Shown here one piece after another: positions 18,652-27,482 of a stretch of 64,000 nucleotides of DNA; positions within the stretch are counted from its first letter, which is position 1, and every line of letters begins with the position of its first letter. Source of the DNA: Alphaproteobacteria bacterium. GTDB taxonomy: Bacteria; Pseudomonadota; Alphaproteobacteria; UBA828. Location: positions 2,144,001 to 2,208,000 of the forward strand of contig CBDEFM010000002.1 of NCBI GenBank assembly GCA_965237415.1. The letters are read 5' to 3'. The notes under the pieces were generated by a model that was given only the letters and a program-made list of their open reading frames with translations, made no database searches and was not told the origin of the DNA. The position numbers and the translations under genes are program-made.

Positions 18652-20319
18652 ATGAAAGCGTCCGATCTTCTGGTCAAATGCCTCGAAACCGAGGGCGTGA
18701 CACACATTTTCGGGATTCCCGGCGAAGAGAACGCCGACGTGATGATGTCGCTGATGGAGAGCGACATCGACTTCGTCCTCTGCCGCCACGAGCAGGCGGC
18801 GGCCTTCATGGCCGATGTCTACGGCCGGCTCACGGGGAAGGCCGGCGTCTGCCTCGGCACCCTCGGCCCCGGTGCCACCAACCTGGTCACCGGCGTCGCC
18901 GATGCCAACATGGACCGCGCGCCGCTGGTCTGCCTCATCGGCCAGGCCGGCACCCAGCGGCTCCATAAGGAAAGCCACCAGAACATGGACTCGGTCTCCA
19001 TGTTCCGCCCCATCACCAAGTGGGCGCAGACGGTGCACCAGCCGGACAGCATCCCCGAGATCGTGCGCAAGGCCTTTAAGGTCGCGGAAGCCGAGAAGCC
19101 CGGCGCGGTGCTGATCGAGCTGCCGGAGGACATCGCCGAGCACGAGGCGAAAGGCGAGCCGATCGCCCCCATCAAGACCCGCCGCCCCGGCGCCGACTAC
19201 AAGGCGGTGGCGCGGGCAGTGGACGCGATCGTGGGCGCCAAGAACCCGATGATCCTCGCCGGCAACGGCGCCATCCGCAAACGCGCCTCGACCCAGCTCA
19301 GGCGCCTCGCCGAACTCACCGGCATCGGCGTCGTCAACACCTTCATGGGCAAGGGCGCGGTACCCAGGGGCGACGAGCATTGTCTCTACACCGTGGGCCT
19401 GCAGGGCAAGGACCACATCATCGCCGCACTGCGCGAGGCCGACGTGATCGTCTCGGTCGGCTACGACCTGGTGGAGTACTCGCCGGCTTTCTGGAACCGC
19501 GGGGTGGAGAAGACCATCGTCCATATCGACTTCTGGCCGGCCGAAGTGGATGGCGACTACGAGGTGGAGGTCGACGTCCAGGGCGACATCGCCGATGCGC
19601 TCTGGCAGATCAACGAGGAGATCGAGCGGCGCGGCGCCGAGGGCGGCGCGAGCCTGCCGCTCTTCGATATCGGCGCGCGGCAAGCGCTCCGACATACCAT
19701 TCACGACGATCTCACCGCCGAGAAGGGCAGCAGCCACTTCCCCATGCGCCCGCAGAAGGTGCTCTACGACGTGCGCGAGGTCATGGGGCCGGGGGACGTG
19801 CTCCTCTCCGACGTGGGCGCGCACAAGATGTGGATCGCCCGCTACTACCAGTGCGACGAGCCGAACACCTGCCTCATCTCCAACGGCTTTTGCACCATGG
19901 GCTTTGCCTTCCCCGGCTCGATCGGGGCCAAGATCGCCATGCCCGACCGCCGGGTTCTTTCGATCAATGGGGACGCCGGGTTCTTCATGAACGCGCAGGA
20001 CATGGAGACCGCGGTCAGGCGCAAGGTCAACGTCGTCGCCATGATCTGGATGGACGGCGCCTACGGCCTGATCGAGTGGAAGCAGCGCAATGCCTTCGAC
20101 GGCCGGCACTTCGATCTCTCCTTCACCAACCCGGACCTGGCGCTCTGGGCCCAGTCCTACGGCGCCTGGGGCCGCACCATCGAGAAGGCGAGCGAGCTCA
20201 CCCCGGCCCTTGAGGAAGCCTTCAAGCAGCCGGGGCCGGCGGTGATCGGCGTGCCCATCGACTACGGCGAGAACATGAAGCTTTCGGCACGCCTCGGGAA
20301 GATCGAATACCCGATCTGA
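18652..20319 (+). CDS. Acetolactate synthase large subunit-like TPP enzyme (no small subunit adjacent)
   Basis: FGIPGEEN, RHEQAAAFMA, TLGPGATNL, SNGF..MG...P, GDAGF TPP motif. Confidence 0.88.
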   Translation: MKASDLLVKCLETEGVTHIFGIPGEENADVMMSLMESDIDFVLCRHEQAAAFMADVYGRLTGKAGVCLGTLGPGATNLVTGVADANMDRAPLVCLIGQAGTQRLHKESHQNMDSVSMFRPITKWAQTVHQPDSIPEIVRKAFKVAEAEKPGAVLIELPEDIAEHEAKGEPIAPIKTRRPGADYKAVARAVDAIVGAKNPMILAGNGAIRKRASTQLRRLAELTGIGVVNTFMGKGAVPRGDEHCLYTVGLQGKDHIIAALREADVIVSVGYDLVEYSPAFWNRGVEKTIVHIDFWPAEVDGDYEVEVDVQGDIADALWQINEEIERRGAEGGASLPLFDIGARQALRHTIHDDLTAEKGSSHFPMRPQKVLYDVREVMGPGDVLLSDVGAHKMWIARYYQCDEPNTCLISNGFCTMGFAFPGSIGAKIAMPDRRVLSINGDAGFFMNAQDMETAVRRKVNVVAMIWMDGAYGLIEWKQRNAFDGRHFDLSFTNPDLALWAQSYGAWGRTIEKASELTPALEEAFKQPGPAVIGVPIDYGENMKLSARLGKIEYPI

Positions 20320-20354
20320 TCCTTCTCCCCTTGGCCGAAAAGCGCCCGCCCGCG

Positions 20355-20383
20355 TTGACTTGAGGAGCCCGCGAACGGATAGT
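20355..20383 (+). promoter_or_regulatory. Putative sigma70 promoter of argD-argF
   Basis: TTGACT-N17-GATAGT upstream of the AAGGAGG RBS. Confidence 0.45.
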
Positions 20384-20414
20384 GCGCGCTTCCCAAATTC
20401 AAGGAGGCGCTGCC

Positions 20415-21584
20415 GTGTCCACCTCATTGATGGCCAACTATGCCCGCATCGGGCTTACCTTCGAGCGGGGCGAGGGGTCGCACCTCTACACGGCCGACGG
20501 CGAGCGCTATCTGGATTTCGGCTGCGGCATCGGCGTGACCAGCCTCGGCCACGCGCATCCGCATGTCGTCGCCGCGCTCGAGGCCCAGAGCAGGCAGCTC
20601 TGGCACGTTTCGAACCTCTACGAGATTCCGCCGCAGGCGCGCCTTGCCGAGCGCCTCACCGCCGCAACCTTTGCCGACCGTGTGCTCTTCTGCAATTCCG
20701 GCGCTGAGGCGATGGAATGCGCGCTCAAGCTCGCGCGCATCTACCAGACGAGCCGGGGCGCGCCCGAGCGCTACCGCGCGGTTACCTTCCGCAACGCCTT
20801 CCACGGGCGGACGTTGGCCACCATCGCGGCGGGCGGGCAGGCCAAGCACCTCAAGGGCTTCGAGCCGGCCATCGATGCCTTCGACCAAGTGGACTTGGGC
20901 GATCTGGATGCGACCCGGGCCGCCATCGGCGACGAGACGGCAGCGCTGCTGGTCGAGCCGGTCCAGGGCGAGGGCGGTGTCTTTCCGGCCAGCGATGACT
21001 TCCTGCGGGGCTTACGCGCGGTCTGTGACGAGGCCGGCCTCGTGCTCATCTTCGACGAGGTGCAGTGCGGCGTGGGGCGCACCGGGCGGCTCTTCGCCCA
21101 TGAGTGGGCGGGCGTCACGCCCGACATCATGGCGGTTGCCAAGGCGCTCGGAAACGGCTTCCCCATCGGTGCCTGCCTCGCGCGGGAGGAGGTCGCGGCC
21201 GCCATGGTCCCCGGCAGTCACGGCACCACCTTCGGCGGCAATCCGCTGGCCTCTGCGGTCGGCAACGCCGTGCTCGAGGTGGTGCTCGGCGATGGCTTCC
21301 TCGACAAGGTGCAGGAGATGGGAACGCTGCTCACCGAGCGCCTCACCGCGCTCGCCGGCAACAAGAGCGTCTACACCGGCGTGCGCGGGCGCGGGCTGAT
21401 GCTGGGCCTGGAGTGCGTCATACCCAACATTGAGCTTCTCACCGCGCTGCGCGAGAACAAGCTGCTGGCGCTGCCGGCGGACGGCAATGTGCTCCGCATG
21501 CTTCCCCCCCTCACCATCGGCGAGGCCGAGGTCGACGAGGCCTGCGACGCGCTGGAACGGGCCTTGGGCCAGGTGGCTACGTGA
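20415..21584 (+). CDS. argD: Acetylornithine aminotransferase
   Basis: AAGGAGG + GTG; FCNSGAEA, FHGRT, EPVQGEGG, DEVQCG.GRTG, AKALGNG, HGTTFGGNP; coupled to argF. Confidence 0.92.
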   Translation: MSTSLMANYARIGLTFERGEGSHLYTADGERYLDFGCGIGVTSLGHAHPHVVAALEAQSRQLWHVSNLYEIPPQARLAERLTAATFADRVLFCNSGAEAMECALKLARIYQTSRGAPERYRAVTFRNAFHGRTLATIAAGGQAKHLKGFEPAIDAFDQVDLGDLDATRAAIGDETAALLVEPVQGEGGVFPASDDFLRGLRAVCDEAGLVLIFDEVQCGVGRTGRLFAHEWAGVTPDIMAVAKALGNGFPIGACLAREEVAAAMVPGSHGTTFGGNPLASAVGNAVLEVVLGDGFLDKVQEMGTLLTERLTALAGNKSVYTGVRGRGLMLGLECVIPNIELLTALRENKLLALPADGNVLRMLPPLTIGEAEVDEACDALERALGQVAT

Positions 21585-22486
21585 CCGCACCGCGCCACTT
21601 CCTCGACTTCGACGGGATCGACGCCGCCACGCTGCGCGCGACCATCGACCGCGCACGCACGCTCAAGGGGCGGAACGGCGCCGCGCCGCTCGCTGGCAAG
21701 ACCCTTGCCGCGATCTTCGAGAGCCCATCGACGCGGACGCGGGTCTCGTTCGAGGTCGCCATGGACGAGCTCGGCGGCAAAACCATCGCCATGACGGCGT
21801 CTGACATGCAGCTCGGCCGCGGCGAGACCATCGAGGACACCGCGCGCGTACTTTCGCGCTATGTCGATGCCATCGCGCTCCGCACACGCTCCCACGAGAC
21901 CCTGATGGCGCTGGCCGAGGGCGCGAGCGTGCCGGTCATCAACGCGCTCTCCGACCGCAGCCACCCCTGCCAGCTCGTGGCCGACGTGATGACCTATGAG
22001 GAGCACCGCGGCCCCATCGCCGGGCGCACGGTCGCCTGGCTCGGCGATGGCAACAACATGGCCGCGACCTGGGTGCAGACGGCCGCGCTCTGCGGCTTCA
22101 GCCTGCGCCTCGCCTGCGCGCCCGGCTTCCCGCCGGAGCCCGCAATCGTCGCCTGGGCCAAGGAGCGGGGCGCGGACGTTGAGGTGGGCACCGACGTGGC
22201 CAGCGCGGTCGCAGGCGTCGATTGCGTGGTGACCGACAGCTGGGTCTCGCTGCATGACGACCCTGCGCGCAAGGGGGACGTCCTGTTCGAGCCCTATCGG
22301 GTGGACGAAGCCGTCATGGCGATGGCGTCGCCCGATGCGATCTTCATGCACTGCCTGCCGGCGAAGCGCGGCTGCGAGGTGACCGACGCGGTGCTCGACG
22401 GCCCGCAATCGGTGGTGCTCGACGAGGCGGCCAACCGCGTGCCCGCCCAGAAGGCGATCCTGCTCTGGTGCCTCGGCGGCGGCTGA
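21581..22486 (+). CDS. argF: Ornithine carbamoyltransferase
   Basis: STRTR, HPCQ, GDGNN, FMHCLP motifs; GTGA overlap with argD. Confidence 0.92.
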   Translation: MTAPRHFLDFDGIDAATLRATIDRARTLKGRNGAAPLAGKTLAAIFESPSTRTRVSFEVAMDELGGKTIAMTASDMQLGRGETIEDTARVLSRYVDAIALRTRSHETLMALAEGASVPVINALSDRSHPCQLVADVMTYEEHRGPIAGRTVAWLGDGNNMAATWVQTAALCGFSLRLACAPGFPPEPAIVAWAKERGADVEVGTDVASAVAGVDCVVTDSWVSLHDDPARKGDVLFEPYRVDEAVMAMASPDAIFMHCLPAKRGCEVTDAVLDGPQSVVLDEAANRVPAQKAILLWCLGGG

Positions 22487-22600
22487 CGCTCTCCGCCCTC
22501 ACCCCGGCCACCCCGGCCACCGAACTAAGTCCCGGCGCCTTCCAAAGGCATCGCCTGCCGTCGGTTGCCGCGGGAGCAACGGTGACTGTCTGCGGGGGAC

Positions 22601-22631
22601 ATGGATGCCCGGAACAAGTCCGTGAGTGACG
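22601..22631. repeat. Degenerate REP-like palindromic element
   Basis: atggatgcccggaacaagtccgtgagtgacg resembles the alphaproteobacterial TGGATGCCCGG..CAAG.CCGGGCATGAC repeat. Confidence 0.45.
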
Positions 22632-22715
22632 CGGAAATGGGCAAGCAGGGGGGTTCGTCATGCCCTGTCGCCGATTCGCCGATCGATCCATGCCGACCAA
22701 TCTCGAAAAATGTCG

Positions 22716-22747
22716 TTGACACTTTAGTTTCTTTGTCACATAGTGAC
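22716..22747 (+). promoter_or_regulatory. sigma70 promoter with operator palindrome overlapping the -10
   Basis: TTGACA(22716)-N17-CATAGT(22739); gtcac-ata-gtgac palindrome at 22735-22747. Confidence 0.6.
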
Positions 22748-22788
22748 TTATAAACATATTCACATCGTCGTGGTTGAGGAATAGAAGC

Positions 22789-23364
22789 GTGCCGACAATC
22801 CGCATTTCGGACGAATCCATGCACCGCCTCAAGGCGTGGGCGGAGCCGCTCGTGGACACGGCGGACTCGGCCCTTGCAAAGGCTTTGGATGCCGCCGAAC
22901 GCTATCGGGAGACGCCCGACCCGACGGAATCTGGTCCCGTCTCACGGTCAGGGCCAGACGGTGAGCCCTCTCCGGAACTGCCGGAGGGGGAGTTTCGAGA
23001 GCCCCTCCTCGAAGTCATCTATGAGCGGGGCGGTAGCGCCCGGGGGCGCGATCTATACCCGGCTCTGAGGGAGCGTATGAAGCGCTATCTGACGCCCGGC
23101 GAGTTCGACCGCGCCAAGTCGGGCGATGAGAGATGGAGAAGTACCGTGAAGTTGGCCCGCGAACACTTGGTTCAAGAGGGATATCTCCGCGAAGACTCGC
23201 CGCGCGGCGTCTGGGCCCTGTCCAACGAAGGCGTCGCGCTGGTCGAGAGCCGGCGTGCGGTATCCTCGGGGAGCTTCGTGGATCACCTCCTGGCGTTCCC
23301 GGAGGTCGGCGACGATTCCGACTTCGATCAGCCGCGCTCCGGGCCGCGGCCGCTCGACCTGTGA
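22789..23364 (+). CDS. Putative antitoxin: RHH-like N-terminus, Mrr_N-like winged helix, VapB-like acidic tail
   Basis: MPTIRISDE; PLLEVI..RGGSA...RW...V..AR..LV.EGYL..DSPRGVW.LS.EG; tail SFVDHLLAFPEVGDDSDFDQPR; GTGA overlap with the PIN gene. Confidence 0.75.
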   Translation: MPTIRISDESMHRLKAWAEPLVDTADSALAKALDAAERYRETPDPTESGPVSRSGPDGEPSPELPEGEFREPLLEVIYERGGSARGRDLYPALRERMKRYLTPGEFDRAKSGDERWRSTVKLAREHLVQEGYLREDSPRGVWALSNEGVALVESRRAVSSGSFVDHLLAFPEVGDDSDFDQPRSGPRPLDL

Positions 23365-23789
23365 GCTATCTCGTCGATACCAATGTGGTCTCCGAACTGC
23401 GGAAGAGGCGCCGCGCCAACCAAAGCGTCGTCGCCTGGTTCGAGGAGCGCGAGCCGGAGGAGCTCTATCTCAGCGTACTGGTGATCGGGGAGCTTCGGCG
23501 CGGCGCCTCCCGCATCCGCCGCCGCGACCCGACCGCCGCAGACTCGCTCGACCGGTGGGTGACACAGATCGGCGAGCGATTCGGCAACCGCGTGCTCGCC
23601 GTGGATCAGGCCGTCGCTGAACGATGGGGCGAGATCACCGCACAGCCGACGGTGCCGGACGTGGACGGCCTTATCGCCGCCACGGCGCTCGTGCACGATC
23701 TCGTCGTCGTGACGCGGAACGTGCGCCATATCGCGCCGACCGGCGCCCGCTGCCTCGATCCGTTCGGCGGAACCGTCGGGATTTGCTAG
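23361..23789 (+). CDS. VapC/PIN-domain toxin
   Basis: YLVDTNVVSELRK, SVLVIGELRRG, DGLIAATALVHDLVVVTRN. Confidence 0.92.
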   Translation: MSYLVDTNVVSELRKRRRANQSVVAWFEEREPEELYLSVLVIGELRRGASRIRRRDPTAADSLDRWVTQIGERFGNRVLAVDQAVAERWGEITAQPTVPDVDGLIAATALVHDLVVVTRNVRHIAPTGARCLDPFGGTVGIC

Positions 23790-23794
23790 TCTAG

Positions 23795-25291
<1,497 letters not shown>

Positions 25292-25348
25292 GGTACGATA
25301 GGGTACGCGGAACAAGAGACGATCGGACACGGCAGGGGAGGCCGAGCG

Positions 25349-25888
25349 ATGAGCAACGACATCATCACGGTGGACGAGTTCGAGAAGACGCGTGTCGCGC
25401 GCTTCGACCAGCTGGAAGGCAGCCGGCTTCCCATGCTGGACGCGGTGATCCCCGGTTGCGAGCGCGAGATCTACCAGATCATCGGCCGCGGCGTCGGCGA
25501 GGACGCGACTCAGAAGGCCGCGATCACCGACAACCGAGATTTCAACGTCGGCGTGGTGCGTTGCGCCCCCGGCAAGGGCACGCTGCACCACGATCACGAG
25601 ACCAACGAGGTCTTCATGCCGCTCAAGGGCCGCTGGAAGATTTTCTGGGGCGACGACGAGGAGAGCCGCTACGTTCTCCTCGATCCCTGGGACGTGGCCT
25701 CCTGCCCACCCCACGTGATGCGGGGCTTCCGCAACGTGGGCGACGAGGAAGGCTTGCTCTTCGTCATCGTCGGCGCCACCGACCCCGGCCGCGTGCAATG
25801 GCGCGACGACGTGCTGGCCGAAGCCGAGCGCCGCGGCCACAAGCTGACCGAGAACGGCATCGAACGGGTGCCGGCAGCAGCCGAGTAG
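25349..25888 (+). CDS. Cupin-domain protein
   Basis: G.LHHDHETNEVFM.LKG.W and PPHVMRGFRN cupin-like motifs; GGGGAGG RBS. Confidence 0.8.
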   Translation: MSNDIITVDEFEKTRVARFDQLEGSRLPMLDAVIPGCEREIYQIIGRGVGEDATQKAAITDNRDFNVGVVRCAPGKGTLHHDHETNEVFMPLKGRWKIFWGDDEESRYVLLDPWDVASCPPHVMRGFRNVGDEEGLLFVIVGATDPGRVQWRDDVLAEAERRGHKLTENGIERVPAAAE

Positions 25889-26033
25889 TCTCGCCGGGCA
25901 ACGCCCCGCGGAGGCGGCATTTTTTCGCTCACGGCAGCCGGCCTGCGGCCGGCGCCTCCGCGAGGGCGCCGCATAAGCGGCGGGCCGCGGTCGCGGCCTG
26001 TCGCGAGTCCGTCAGAAACGGACTCGCTCTAGC

Positions 26034-27482
26034 TTACGAGACGAGCGCCGGCCAGCGGTCGCGCCAGGGGCGGGCAGCCTCGAAGGCGGCAGCGGCCTTG
26101 AGCACCGTCGCATCGTCCAGATGGCGGCCCACGATCTGCAGCCCGACCGGGAGGCCGTCCGCTGTCCAGCCTGCCGGCACGCTCGCCGCCGGCTGGCCCG
26201 TCATGTTCATGGGGAAGGTGAAGGCGAGCCAGGCGAAGGGCGGCACCAGGCGCCCCTCGATGATCTCCGGCCCCTGCATGTAGAGGCCGAAGGGCGGGCA
26301 CGCGAGCGTCGGCGTGAGCAGCAGGTCGTAGCCCCGCATGAAGCGCCACATCTTGTTCACGACCGCCTTCCGCCCGATCACCGCGTCGGTGAGGTCCTCC
26401 GCTGTCCACGGCCGGGTGATGAAATCCACCAGATGGGGCGTCATCCGTGAGCCGTGTTCGGCCACCAGCCGGCGCATCCCGGCGAGGTCGGTCTCCGCCG
26501 CCACCAGACCCCAGAAGGTGAGATAGGGGTCGTCCCAGCCGGGGTCGGCCTCCTCGACCGTGCAGCCGAGCTCGCTCTCGAACACCTTGACTGCATCGCC
26601 CACGATCTGGCGCACCTCGGGGTCGACGGCGGCATAGCCCCAGTCCGCGCTGTAGGCCACGCGCAAGCCCCTGAGGTCGCCGCCGGCAGTCGCGCTTCCG
26701 AGCCAGTCGACGTCGCCGGCGGGCAGCGAGTGGCGGTCGCGATCGTCCGGGCCGGCCATGACCGAGAGCATGAGCGCTGAATCCGCCACGGTCCGCGTCA
26801 TCGGGCCGATATGCTCGATCCCCTCCCAACTGGAGACGCCGGGGTAGCGCTCGTCGCGACAACCGGGATAGAGCGGCACCCGCCCCATCGACGCCTTGAC
26901 CCCCACGAGCCCGCAGAAGGACGACGGAATCCGCACCGAGCCGCCGCCGTCGCTGCCGACCGCGAGCGGCCCGACGCCAGCCGCCACCGCGGCGCCCGAG
27001 CCCGCGCTGGAACCGCCGGGGGAGCGTTCCGGGTTCCAGGGGTTGCGCGTCGCCTCGAACACGGCGTTGTGGCTCGCGCCGCTGTAGCCGAACTCCGGCA
27101 CGTTGGTCTTGCCGAGGATGACGGCGCCGGCCGCCTTCAGGCGCTCGACCGCGACGTCGTCCTCCTCCGGCAAGAAACCCTCGTAGGCGATGGAGCCCGA
27201 GACGGTCGGCAGGTCCTTGGTGCAGACGAGGTCCTTGATGCCGACCGGCACACCCGCGAGCGGCCCCGGGTCCTCGCCCGCCTGGACGCGGGCATCCACC
27301 TGCCGGGCGGCGGCGCGGGCATAGTCGGGCGCAGGCGTGCAGAAGGCGTGCAGGTGAGGCTCCACCTCTTCCATGTGGGCGATCACCGCGTCCGCGACCT
27401 CGATTGCCGAGAGCTCCTTAGCCCGCACCCGCGCCGCCAGCGTGACGGCGTCCATGCGGCAGATTTCGCTTGCTCGCGGCAT
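26034..27482 (-). CDS. Amidase (GatA-like AS family)
   Basis: GVPVGIKDL, GKTNVPEFG, PGGSSAGS, GSDGGGSVRIP, GLPVGLQIVG. Confidence 0.9.
   Translation of the reverse strand: MPRASEICRMDAVTLAARVRAKELSAIEVADAVIAHMEEVEPHLHAFCTPAPDYARAAARQVDARVQAGEDPGPLAGVPVGIKDLVCTKDLPTVSGSIAYEGFLPEEDDVAVERLKAAGAVILGKTNVPEFGYSGASHNAVFEATRNPWNPERSPGGSSAGSGAAVAAGVGPLAVGSDGGGSVRIPSSFCGLVGVKASMGRVPLYPGCRDERYPGVSSWEGIEHIGPMTRTVADSALMLSVMAGPDDRDRHSLPAGDVDWLGSATAGGDLRGLRVAYSADWGYAAVDPEVRQIVGDAVKVFESELGCTVEEADPGWDDPYLTFWGLVAAETDLAGMRRLVAEHGSRMTPHLVDFITRPWTAEDLTDAVIGRKAVVNKMWRFMRGYDLLLTPTLACPPFGLYMQGPEIIEGRLVPPFAWLAFTFPMNMTGQPAASVPAGWTADGLPVGLQIVGRHLDDATVLKAAAAFEAARPWRDRWPALVS

Follow-up and report, generated by a model that had tools for sequence, protein, structure and literature searches.

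A probable FitAB/VapBC-like toxin-antitoxin operon of an alphaproteobacterium encodes a conserved three-module antitoxin with an Mrr_N winged helix

The gene pair analysed here lies in a 64,000-nucleotide stretch of the genome of an Alphaproteobacteria bacterium (lineage UBA828; assembly GCA_965237415.1, contig CBDEFM010000002.1, positions 2,144,001 to 2,208,000 of the forward strand), hereafter called the window, and consists of a putative antitoxin gene followed by a PIN-domain toxin gene. Its closest described relatives are the FitAB and VapBC toxin-antitoxin (TA) systems, the Mrr-type restriction enzymes and a group of two-domain proteins annotated as "Mrr N-terminal domain-containing". 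In FitAB of Neisseria gonorrhoeae, FitA, a ribbon-helix-helix (RHH) antitoxin of about 78 amino acids, is paired with the PIN toxin FitB. The DNA-binding domains of VapB antitoxins are, to our knowledge, of the RHH, AbrB, Phd/YefM or Xre types. Mrr-type restriction enzymes join an Mrr_N domain to the catalytic domain Mrr_cat, Mrr_N being a DNA-binding module of restriction enzymes that act against modified DNA. In the portions of the literature accessible to our search, no description of a VapB or other antitoxin bearing Mrr_N was found.

The window pair resembles FitAB in that the antitoxin gene lies upstream of the toxin gene and is translationally coupled to it, in the strand-helix-helix order of the antitoxin N-terminus (the head), in a C-terminal tail predicted to lie over the active site of the PIN toxin, and in a palindromic putative operator at the promoter. 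It differs from FitAB in that the antitoxin has 191 amino acids, with a linker and a 95-residue Mrr_N winged helix between head and tail, in the lack of detectable sequence similarity between the antitoxin and FitA, and in the Asn found in the PIN toxin at the fourth acidic position of FitB. One difference from VapBC lies in the toxin, which scores far below the cut-off of the model for tRNA(fMet)-specific VapC proteins. As in Mrr-type enzymes, the antitoxin contains, at its centre, a genuine PF14338 domain with a confident winged-helix model; unlike in those enzymes, the antitoxin polypeptide carries no nuclease or other enzymatic domain, and the effector would be a separate PIN RNase, held, according to the complex model, by a peptide tail. 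The two-domain proteins (about 150-170 amino acids) are collinear with the window antitoxin over residues 1 to about 155 (head, linker and Mrr_N), and four of 16 such genes have the same palindromic motif, GTNAC-N3-GTNAC, upstream, but they have neither PIN-binding tail nor PIN partner and precede instead an HKD-Snf2 helicase, a PD-T4-6-type kinase or proteins of 662-803 amino acids. The features of the locus are as follows (pLDDT, predicted local distance difference test; AF2, AlphaFold 2; ORF, open reading frame).

22716-22744, + strand: sigma-70-type promoter, -35 box TTGACA (22716-22721), 17-nt spacer, -10 box CATAGT (22739-22744), 10 of 12 positions
22735-22747, no strand: putative operator palindrome GTCAC-ATA-GTGAC, of the form GTNAC-N3-GTNAC, overlapping the -10 box
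22776-22780, + strand: Shine-Dalgarno sequence GAGGA, 8 nt before the GTG start, read from the sequence
22789-23364, + strand: three-part antitoxin gene (protein P0001), GTG start, 191 amino acids, from ORF, Pfam match and homologues
22789-22908, + strand: head, residues 1-40, proposed RHH-like dimerisation and operator-binding domain, from AF2 topology and conservation
22909-22980, + strand: variable disordered linker, residues 41-64, pLDDT below 50 for residues 42-62
22981-23265, + strand: Mrr_N winged-helix domain, residues 65-159, Pfam match to residues 68-153 (22990-23247)
23266-23361, + strand: tail, residues 160-191, predicted PIN-binding segment at residues 162-183 (23272-23337)
23361-23789, + strand: PIN-domain toxin gene (protein P0002), FitB-like, 142 amino acids, from PF01850 and the FitB profile match

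We consider it probable that this locus is a FitAB/VapBC-like type II TA operon in which a conserved antitoxin of three modules carries Mrr_N as an accessory to the core pair. The core mechanism, namely repression by the head at GTNAC-N3-GTNAC and neutralisation by the tail, is well supported in silico. Computation shows the order and coupling of the genes, the identity of the domains, sequence conservation, the enrichment of the operator motif and the predicted tail-PIN interface; we infer that the head binds DNA and that the PIN protein is toxic, and any ligand of Mrr_N would likewise be conjectural. The stop codon of the antitoxin gene and the GTG start of the toxin gene overlap as GTGA, and the toxin matched the PIN family PF01850 (E 1.6e-15, 58.2 bits, cut-off 23.6), in agreement with the coupling to a PIN toxin proposed in a preliminary description of this DNA. 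That description had also proposed an antitoxin about twice the normal size, with an Mrr_N-like centre devoid of nuclease, a tail resembling PIN-neutralising acidic tails and a promoter with a palindrome in front; each of these elements was recovered in the analyses reported below, beginning with size, since the natural form without Mrr_N has 86-88 amino acids. With a profile of the PIN toxin, FitB (PDB 2H1C, 2H1O, 2BSQ) was matched almost end to end (E 5.7e-17). Three of the four active-site acids of PIN domains, D6, E44 and D102, are present in the window toxin and do not vary among 16 sequences. At the fourth acidic position the window toxin has N120, and Asn is found there in all 12 PINs paired with Mrr_N-bearing antitoxins, whereas it is Asp in the four PINs paired with short antitoxins and in FitB. 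A histidine at position 123 is present in 15 of the 16 sequences (PIN residues 120-123 correspond to window 23718-23729). On the model of the tRNA(fMet)-specific VapC equivalog NF047863, which has a cut-off of 140 bits, the toxin scored only 39.9; assignment to this equivalog was rejected, and the model does not allow the RNA target of the toxin to be inferred.

The three-part antitoxin was found to belong to a widespread family. Homologue searches returned 136 protein clusters at E<=1e-3 among 431 candidates; among the matches listed, PF14338 was present in 117 of 120 homologues and full-length matches (about 190 amino acids) extended down to 47% identity. In an alignment of 25 members (A1), three conserved blocks (residues 1-40, 65-155 and 162-191) are separated by variable linkers, and the linker behind the head differs in both length and sequence among homologues. 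Gene neighbourhoods were compared in 78 loci (designated L and a number) obtained from a scan of one genome per species, with neighbours identified by tblastn and an ORF script. The TA-type set of 32 loci comprises 27 long forms, the window counted, and five short forms. A collinear three-part architecture was detected in 26 other loci, the long forms being distributed over Alphaproteobacteria/Rhodospirillales, Pseudomonadales, Ca. Azotimanducaceae, other Gammaproteobacteria and Thermodesulfobacteriota/Dadabacteria. In 19 of these 26 loci the three-part gene shares its last 4 nt with the ORF that follows, and 18 of these 19 ORFs match the PIN toxin by tblastn across residues 1-104 or more. The PIN of L002 is cut at residue 112 by a contig end, that of L018 is a short ORF of 110 amino acids matching residues 1-108 at 45% identity, and that of L023 matches in two pieces and is apparently frameshifted. 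Together with L001, a further PIN-adjoining case by tblastn position, a three-part gene abutting a PIN homologue was found in 20 further loci. The preliminary description had proposed looking for this architecture upstream of PIN genes in other genomes, and had offered as its alternative a chance deletion fusion peculiar to the source genome and without selected function. With the gene order repeated in those loci, homologous clusters as diverged as stated above, and invariant residues in all three parts of the protein, such an origin is exceedingly improbable and the alternative is regarded as refuted; no evidence in its favour came up.

For the tail, a complex with the PIN toxin was modelled. 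Residues H166, L167, P171, G174, D178 and F179 are invariant in the 25 sequences, and the segment is homologous to the tail of the antitoxins of 86-88 amino acids that pair with the same PIN family. When antitoxin residues 150-191 (alignment A1) were submitted to complex prediction together with the PIN toxin (alignment A2), the pair reached an ipSAE of 0.86, compared with 0.02 for the best of three controls; the runs share at least 89% of their contacts and the partner has a pLDDT of at least 65. Among solved complexes, 116 of 157 attain the mark applied to such scores, as do 2 of 215 mismatched pairs, counts that are only a rough guide here because our own alignments were used. In the model, tail residues 162-183 contact PIN residues 5-16, 24-35, 44-52, 56-77 and 99-102, the face that holds D6, E44 and D102. 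The tail is thus predicted to cover the active-site face of the PIN toxin and to neutralise it.

The second element of the core mechanism is the operator. The promoter scan returned two promoter-like sites versus 0.2 expected from shuffles, and the promoter of the operon falls in a dip to about 50% G+C, compared with about 68% in the surrounding region and the genome; its TTGACA is kept in related loci. The palindrome over the -10 box came to light on inspection of the sequence and in a pattern search, its 5-nt arms having escaped a repeat search with 6-nt seeds. GTNAC-N3-GTNAC occurs only once in the 64-kb window, at this promoter. Among the TA-type genes it is present upstream of 13 of 32, namely 9 of 27 long forms (window counted) and 4 of 5 short forms, while the remaining locus sequence (245,276 nt) contains none and shuffled upstream regions gave a mean of 0.05 regions. 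The tail-less genes with the motif (L027, L029, L030 and L034) belong to Alphaproteobacteria, Dehalococcoidia and Spirochaetales, and in them it again stands just after a TTGACA. Pooling the three antitoxin forms, 17 of 48 upstream regions contain the motif. Operator recognition is assigned to the head and not to Mrr_N, because the head is the sole module common to the three forms; we infer from these distributions that recognition belongs to this shared module. A second short motif, CACATCGTC, was observed at window 22760-22769; it stands about 20-45 nt before the start codon, is conserved in close relatives (L001-L009) and recurs in the distant gammaproteobacterial loci L018 (exact) and L021 (GCATCGTC).

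The head is present in the long, short and tail-less forms, with an identity to the window head of 61-76% in TA-type proteins and of 27-48% in tail-less ones. In AF2 models, residues 1-7 are extended and followed by helices at 8-18 and 25-40/41, a predicted topology that corresponds to the strand-helix-helix order of RHH proteins. Nine residues are invariant in the 25-sequence alignment (R13, L14, K15, W17, A18, E19, P20, L21 and D23). Sub-threshold Pfam matches of 19 heads were to DUF7557 (17 of 19, best E 9.5e-4), SeqA_N (2 of 19) and VAPB_antitox (1 of 19), and the N-terminus of SeqA was weakly matched in L035. The ESM Atlas provided leads only (scores 0.80-0.85), including one cluster with SeqA_N in 16% of its members. 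A PDB profile search with the head returned designed proteins and coiled coils only. Residues 2-45 of the antitoxin (22792-22923) also match positions 2-45 of 182 of NCBIfam NF047386 at 29.1 bits, and this N-terminal match recurs in 12 of 16 relatives scanned (23-42 bits). Membership in NF047386, the "T4SS effector SepA family", was rejected, these scores being far below the cut-off of 110, and the likeness was taken as a shared N-terminal module only. The NF047386 family may start with the same small strand-helix-helix module.

Against Mrr_N (PF14338), whose curated gathering cut-off is 29.5 bits, the central domain scored 39.5 bits (E 6.1e-10) over profile positions 3-86 of 87. No other Pfam match was obtained in the antitoxin even at E<=10, and the Pfam scan of this protein yielded no nuclease domain, including the C-terminal PD-(D/E)xK catalytic domain of Mrr. 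The Mrr_N fold was modelled confidently by AF2 (pLDDT about 90 over residues 67-159), with flanking linkers of low confidence. A Foldseek search with the whole antitoxin model returned generic winged-helix proteins (F-93, PadR, MarR) with probability 1.0 and a best E of 3.3e-3, and nothing at E<=1e-3. Residues W116, G131, R134, D136, R139, G140 and W142 are invariant in the 25 sequences.

Natural variants lacking this domain bear directly on its role. The short-form antitoxins (L045, L049, L052, L057 and L058) consist of a head and a tail with a short linker between them, aligning to window residues 1-41 and 162-191, respectively. Four of them, all but that of L058, overlap by 4 nt a PIN gene whose product is 55-57% identical to the window PIN, comparable with the 57-62% of PINs from distant long forms. 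Short-form antitoxins make up a family of their own with 45 clusters; a search for shorter homologues returned mainly fragments. One short protein, P0173, is 71% identical to residues 142-189 of the long protein P0121, and since the aligned stretch includes the last helix of Mrr_N, P0173 appears to have arisen by deletion of Mrr_N, at least one such loss having occurred. Because the short forms keep both PIN and operator, operator recognition and PIN neutralisation seem independent of Mrr_N, which on this sequence evidence appears to be an accessory not needed by the core TA pair. Dispensability of the winged helix, named in the preliminary description as a finding that would speak against its proposal, is in a weak form suggested by these variants.

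With regard to the locus itself, the start at 22789 was favoured because homologues begin with MPTIRISD or MPVIRISD; an upstream TTG at 22774 (196 amino acids) was rejected, as homologue N-termini fit 22789. Arginine-biosynthesis genes (argD-argF) flank the pair on one side and a dihydropyrimidinase gene on the other. No terminator-like site was found by the scan after the PIN gene, and an Rfam scan of 22300-24000 returned a single chance-level match (E 0.6).

When a profile was searched against 1.84 billion representative proteins, 3597 matches were obtained at E<=1e-3, of which 92 reached E<=1e-30. The best 150 of the 3597 are mostly proteins of 150-200 amino acids that cover profile positions 1 to about 160 and lack the tail, with few covering 1-195. 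Because the tail-less form predominates in these best 150, the window protein is regarded as a head-Mrr_N protein with an added PIN-binding tail. This predominance favours an explanation in which a SeqA-like core of head and Mrr_N acts as a transcription factor or DNA-organising protein that regulates itself and the following gene, the tail having been acquired and the toxin being a dispensable passenger. The operator upstream of tail-less genes in three distant lineages and the weak matches to the SeqA N-terminus point in the same direction, as does the fate of the toxin: PIN is absent from 7 of the 32 TA-type loci (L008, L015, L016, L020, L022, L024 and L058), frameshifted in L023 and short in L018, with the antitoxin gene retained throughout. 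Three of these orphans (L015:4001-4690, L016:4001-4735 and L020:4001-4738) occupy the same argD-argF / dihydropyrimidinase site as the window pair. They share one deletion, corresponding approximately to window 23328-23700, by which the last tail residues and PIN codons 1 to about 113 were lost, and have since diverged to 56-65% identity, keeping the invariant residues of head, Mrr_N and tail. On the other hand, loss of the toxin with retention of the antitoxin is the usual decay route of TA pairs, conservation of the orphan tails fits neutralisation in trans of related PINs equally well, and most loci (23 of 32) have an intact PIN tightly coupled by a 4-nt overlap. A regulator with a passenger toxin is accordingly regarded as very unlikely.

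In genomes with this chromosomal site in common, divergence is much greater within the cassette than around it. Between the window and L016, ArgF is 97% identical and the antitoxin 58%, and between the window and L001-L010 the corresponding values are 90-92% and 75-81%. A DNA comparison of window 20001-27000 with L016 gave 94-97% identity in the flanks and 67-80% in the antitoxin region. The comparison with L016 suggests either allele replacement or divergent alleles maintained for a long time at one site.

Such divergence would also be compatible with a role in defence, as put forward in the preliminary description, according to which Mrr_N recognises foreign or modified DNA, for example that of a phage, so that the antitoxin is pulled off the PIN toxin or the operator, or proteolysed, the RNase is freed and the infection is aborted. 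The role of Mrr_N in restriction of modified DNA lends itself to this proposal. Moreover, a study of the Menshen defence system lists Mrr_N among the predicted sensor winged-helix domains of its protein NsnA (PMC12065111). The wing and the recognition helix of Mrr_N are strongly conserved in the antitoxin family, and some relatives stand next to defence genes. In L077:230-6384 (Roseicella aquatilis NZ_SKBM01000032.1), a gene for a head-Mrr_N protein of 153 amino acids ends 2 nt ahead of that for a 640-residue Ser/Thr kinase with a PADLOC PD-T4-6 match (E 8.6e-94), and a GmrSD_N protein is encoded upstream. In L034:2672-7709, a head-Mrr_N gene (169 amino acids) whose promoter contains GTTAC-ATT-GTGAC lies between a Fic-domain gene and a gene for an HKD(PLD)-Snf2 helicase of 1049 amino acids (PADLOC C3a139, E 6.7e-59). 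Relatives with Mrr_N only are located directly upstream of DndD/PbeC ATPases (E about 1e-135; L069 and L073) and of HEC-05 (L043).

These associations are balanced by several observations on the pair and its family. No PADLOC-DB 2.0 family (5027 models) matched either window protein at E<=1, the phage collection contained no match, and the plasmid collection gave two weak matches, restricted to Mrr_N and located inside DNA methyltransferase genes. The window pair, between argF and the dihydropyrimidinase gene, lies outside any defence island. Only 7 of 19 tail-less head-Mrr_N loci are next to defence or mobile-element genes; the neighbours are exclusively metabolic or housekeeping genes in 5 and unclassified in the others, raw counts that come with no background rate. 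In addition, the antitoxins devoid of Mrr_N retain PIN and operator, and no mechanism connects binding by Mrr_N to release of the tail. We therefore hold the sensor-antitoxin explanation to be unlikely. A broader version, in which head and Mrr_N form a widespread, portable control module that binds an operator of its own (GTNAC-N3-GTNAC), senses foreign or modified DNA through Mrr_N and sets the expression or activity of whichever effector follows, being wired here through the tail to a PIN toxin as an anti-phage antitoxin and standing elsewhere ahead of an HKD-Snf2 helicase, a PD-T4-6-type kinase or large proteins, is quite unlikely in our judgement.

Other neighbours of the tail-less relatives were recorded. 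Tyrosine recombinases of the Phage_integrase family with a C-terminal Mrr_N are encoded directly upstream of the head-Mrr_N gene in L067:1732-3699, L072:2071-3696 and L075:332-2008, all three from metagenome-assembled genomes of Solirubrobacterales, and two of the loci, L067 and L072, also have a gene for a DNA methylase upstream of the integrase gene. Large proteins of 662-803 amino acids are encoded downstream of head-Mrr_N genes in L032:4534-6873, L035:4498-6906, L036:4531-6870 and L027:1554-3539. The genes in the first three overlap the head-Mrr_N gene by 4 nt and that of L027 follows after a gap of 42 nt; none of the four proteins had a Pfam or PADLOC match. They may be candidate effectors under the same regulator.

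The reading of the window pair as a TA operon with an accessory Mrr_N has itself to be weighed against a number of points, the most general being that the evidence for every step consists of sequence analysis and prediction. The RHH-like head claimed in the preliminary description is the weakest element: the topology predicted for it is compatible with an RHH fold, but matches to curated RHH models stayed below their cut-offs (RHH_1 at a best E of 0.075, in 1 of 19 members). Foldseek with a 46-residue head model gave no match, this model being probably too short, and PDB profile searches with the long antitoxin, the head and the short antitoxin returned no solved antitoxin and did not detect FitA. 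The exact operator form is missing from 19 of 32 TA-type upstream regions, among them those of the ten nearest relatives (L001-L010), where variants like GTCAC-ATT-ATCAC stand instead. The score of the tail-PIN model may partly reflect likeness to VapBC and FitAB, since complexes of those systems have been solved, and activity of the window toxin is not assured because Asn replaces the fourth acidic residue. Finally, Mrr_N is strongly conserved even in alleles without PIN, which speaks for a selected function that the term accessory fails to explain.

Taking these points into account, the TA reading leads to the following picture. The head, probably an RHH-like dimer, would bind GTNAC-N3-GTNAC over the -10 box and repress the operon, and tail residues 162-183, which in the model cover the face bearing the active site of the PIN RNase, would neutralise this enzyme. 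Between them, Mrr_N would be an accessory nucleic-acid-binding module, a winged helix of about 95 residues on flexible linkers, inherited from the far larger head-Mrr_N family, that most likely binds DNA other than the operator. In this way the complex could be anchored on DNA, or the repressor-antitoxin could be drawn from its operator by titration once a particular DNA appears.

If Mrr_N is merely an accessory DNA tether, the pair would be an ordinary VapBC/FitAB variant. Beyond the pair itself, the occurrence of the head together with GTNAC-N3-GTNAC in Pseudomonadota, Chloroflexota and Spirochaetota hints at an unrecognised family of small autoregulators, some of which stand before defence genes. 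The family also constitutes a natural deletion series, comprising head, Mrr_N and tail with PIN, head and tail with PIN, head and Mrr_N with other effectors, and orphans without PIN, which allows module-by-module tests without engineered truncations. For the signal that frees type II toxins, most antitoxins present no candidate sensing domain, and the Mrr_N antitoxin family offers one.

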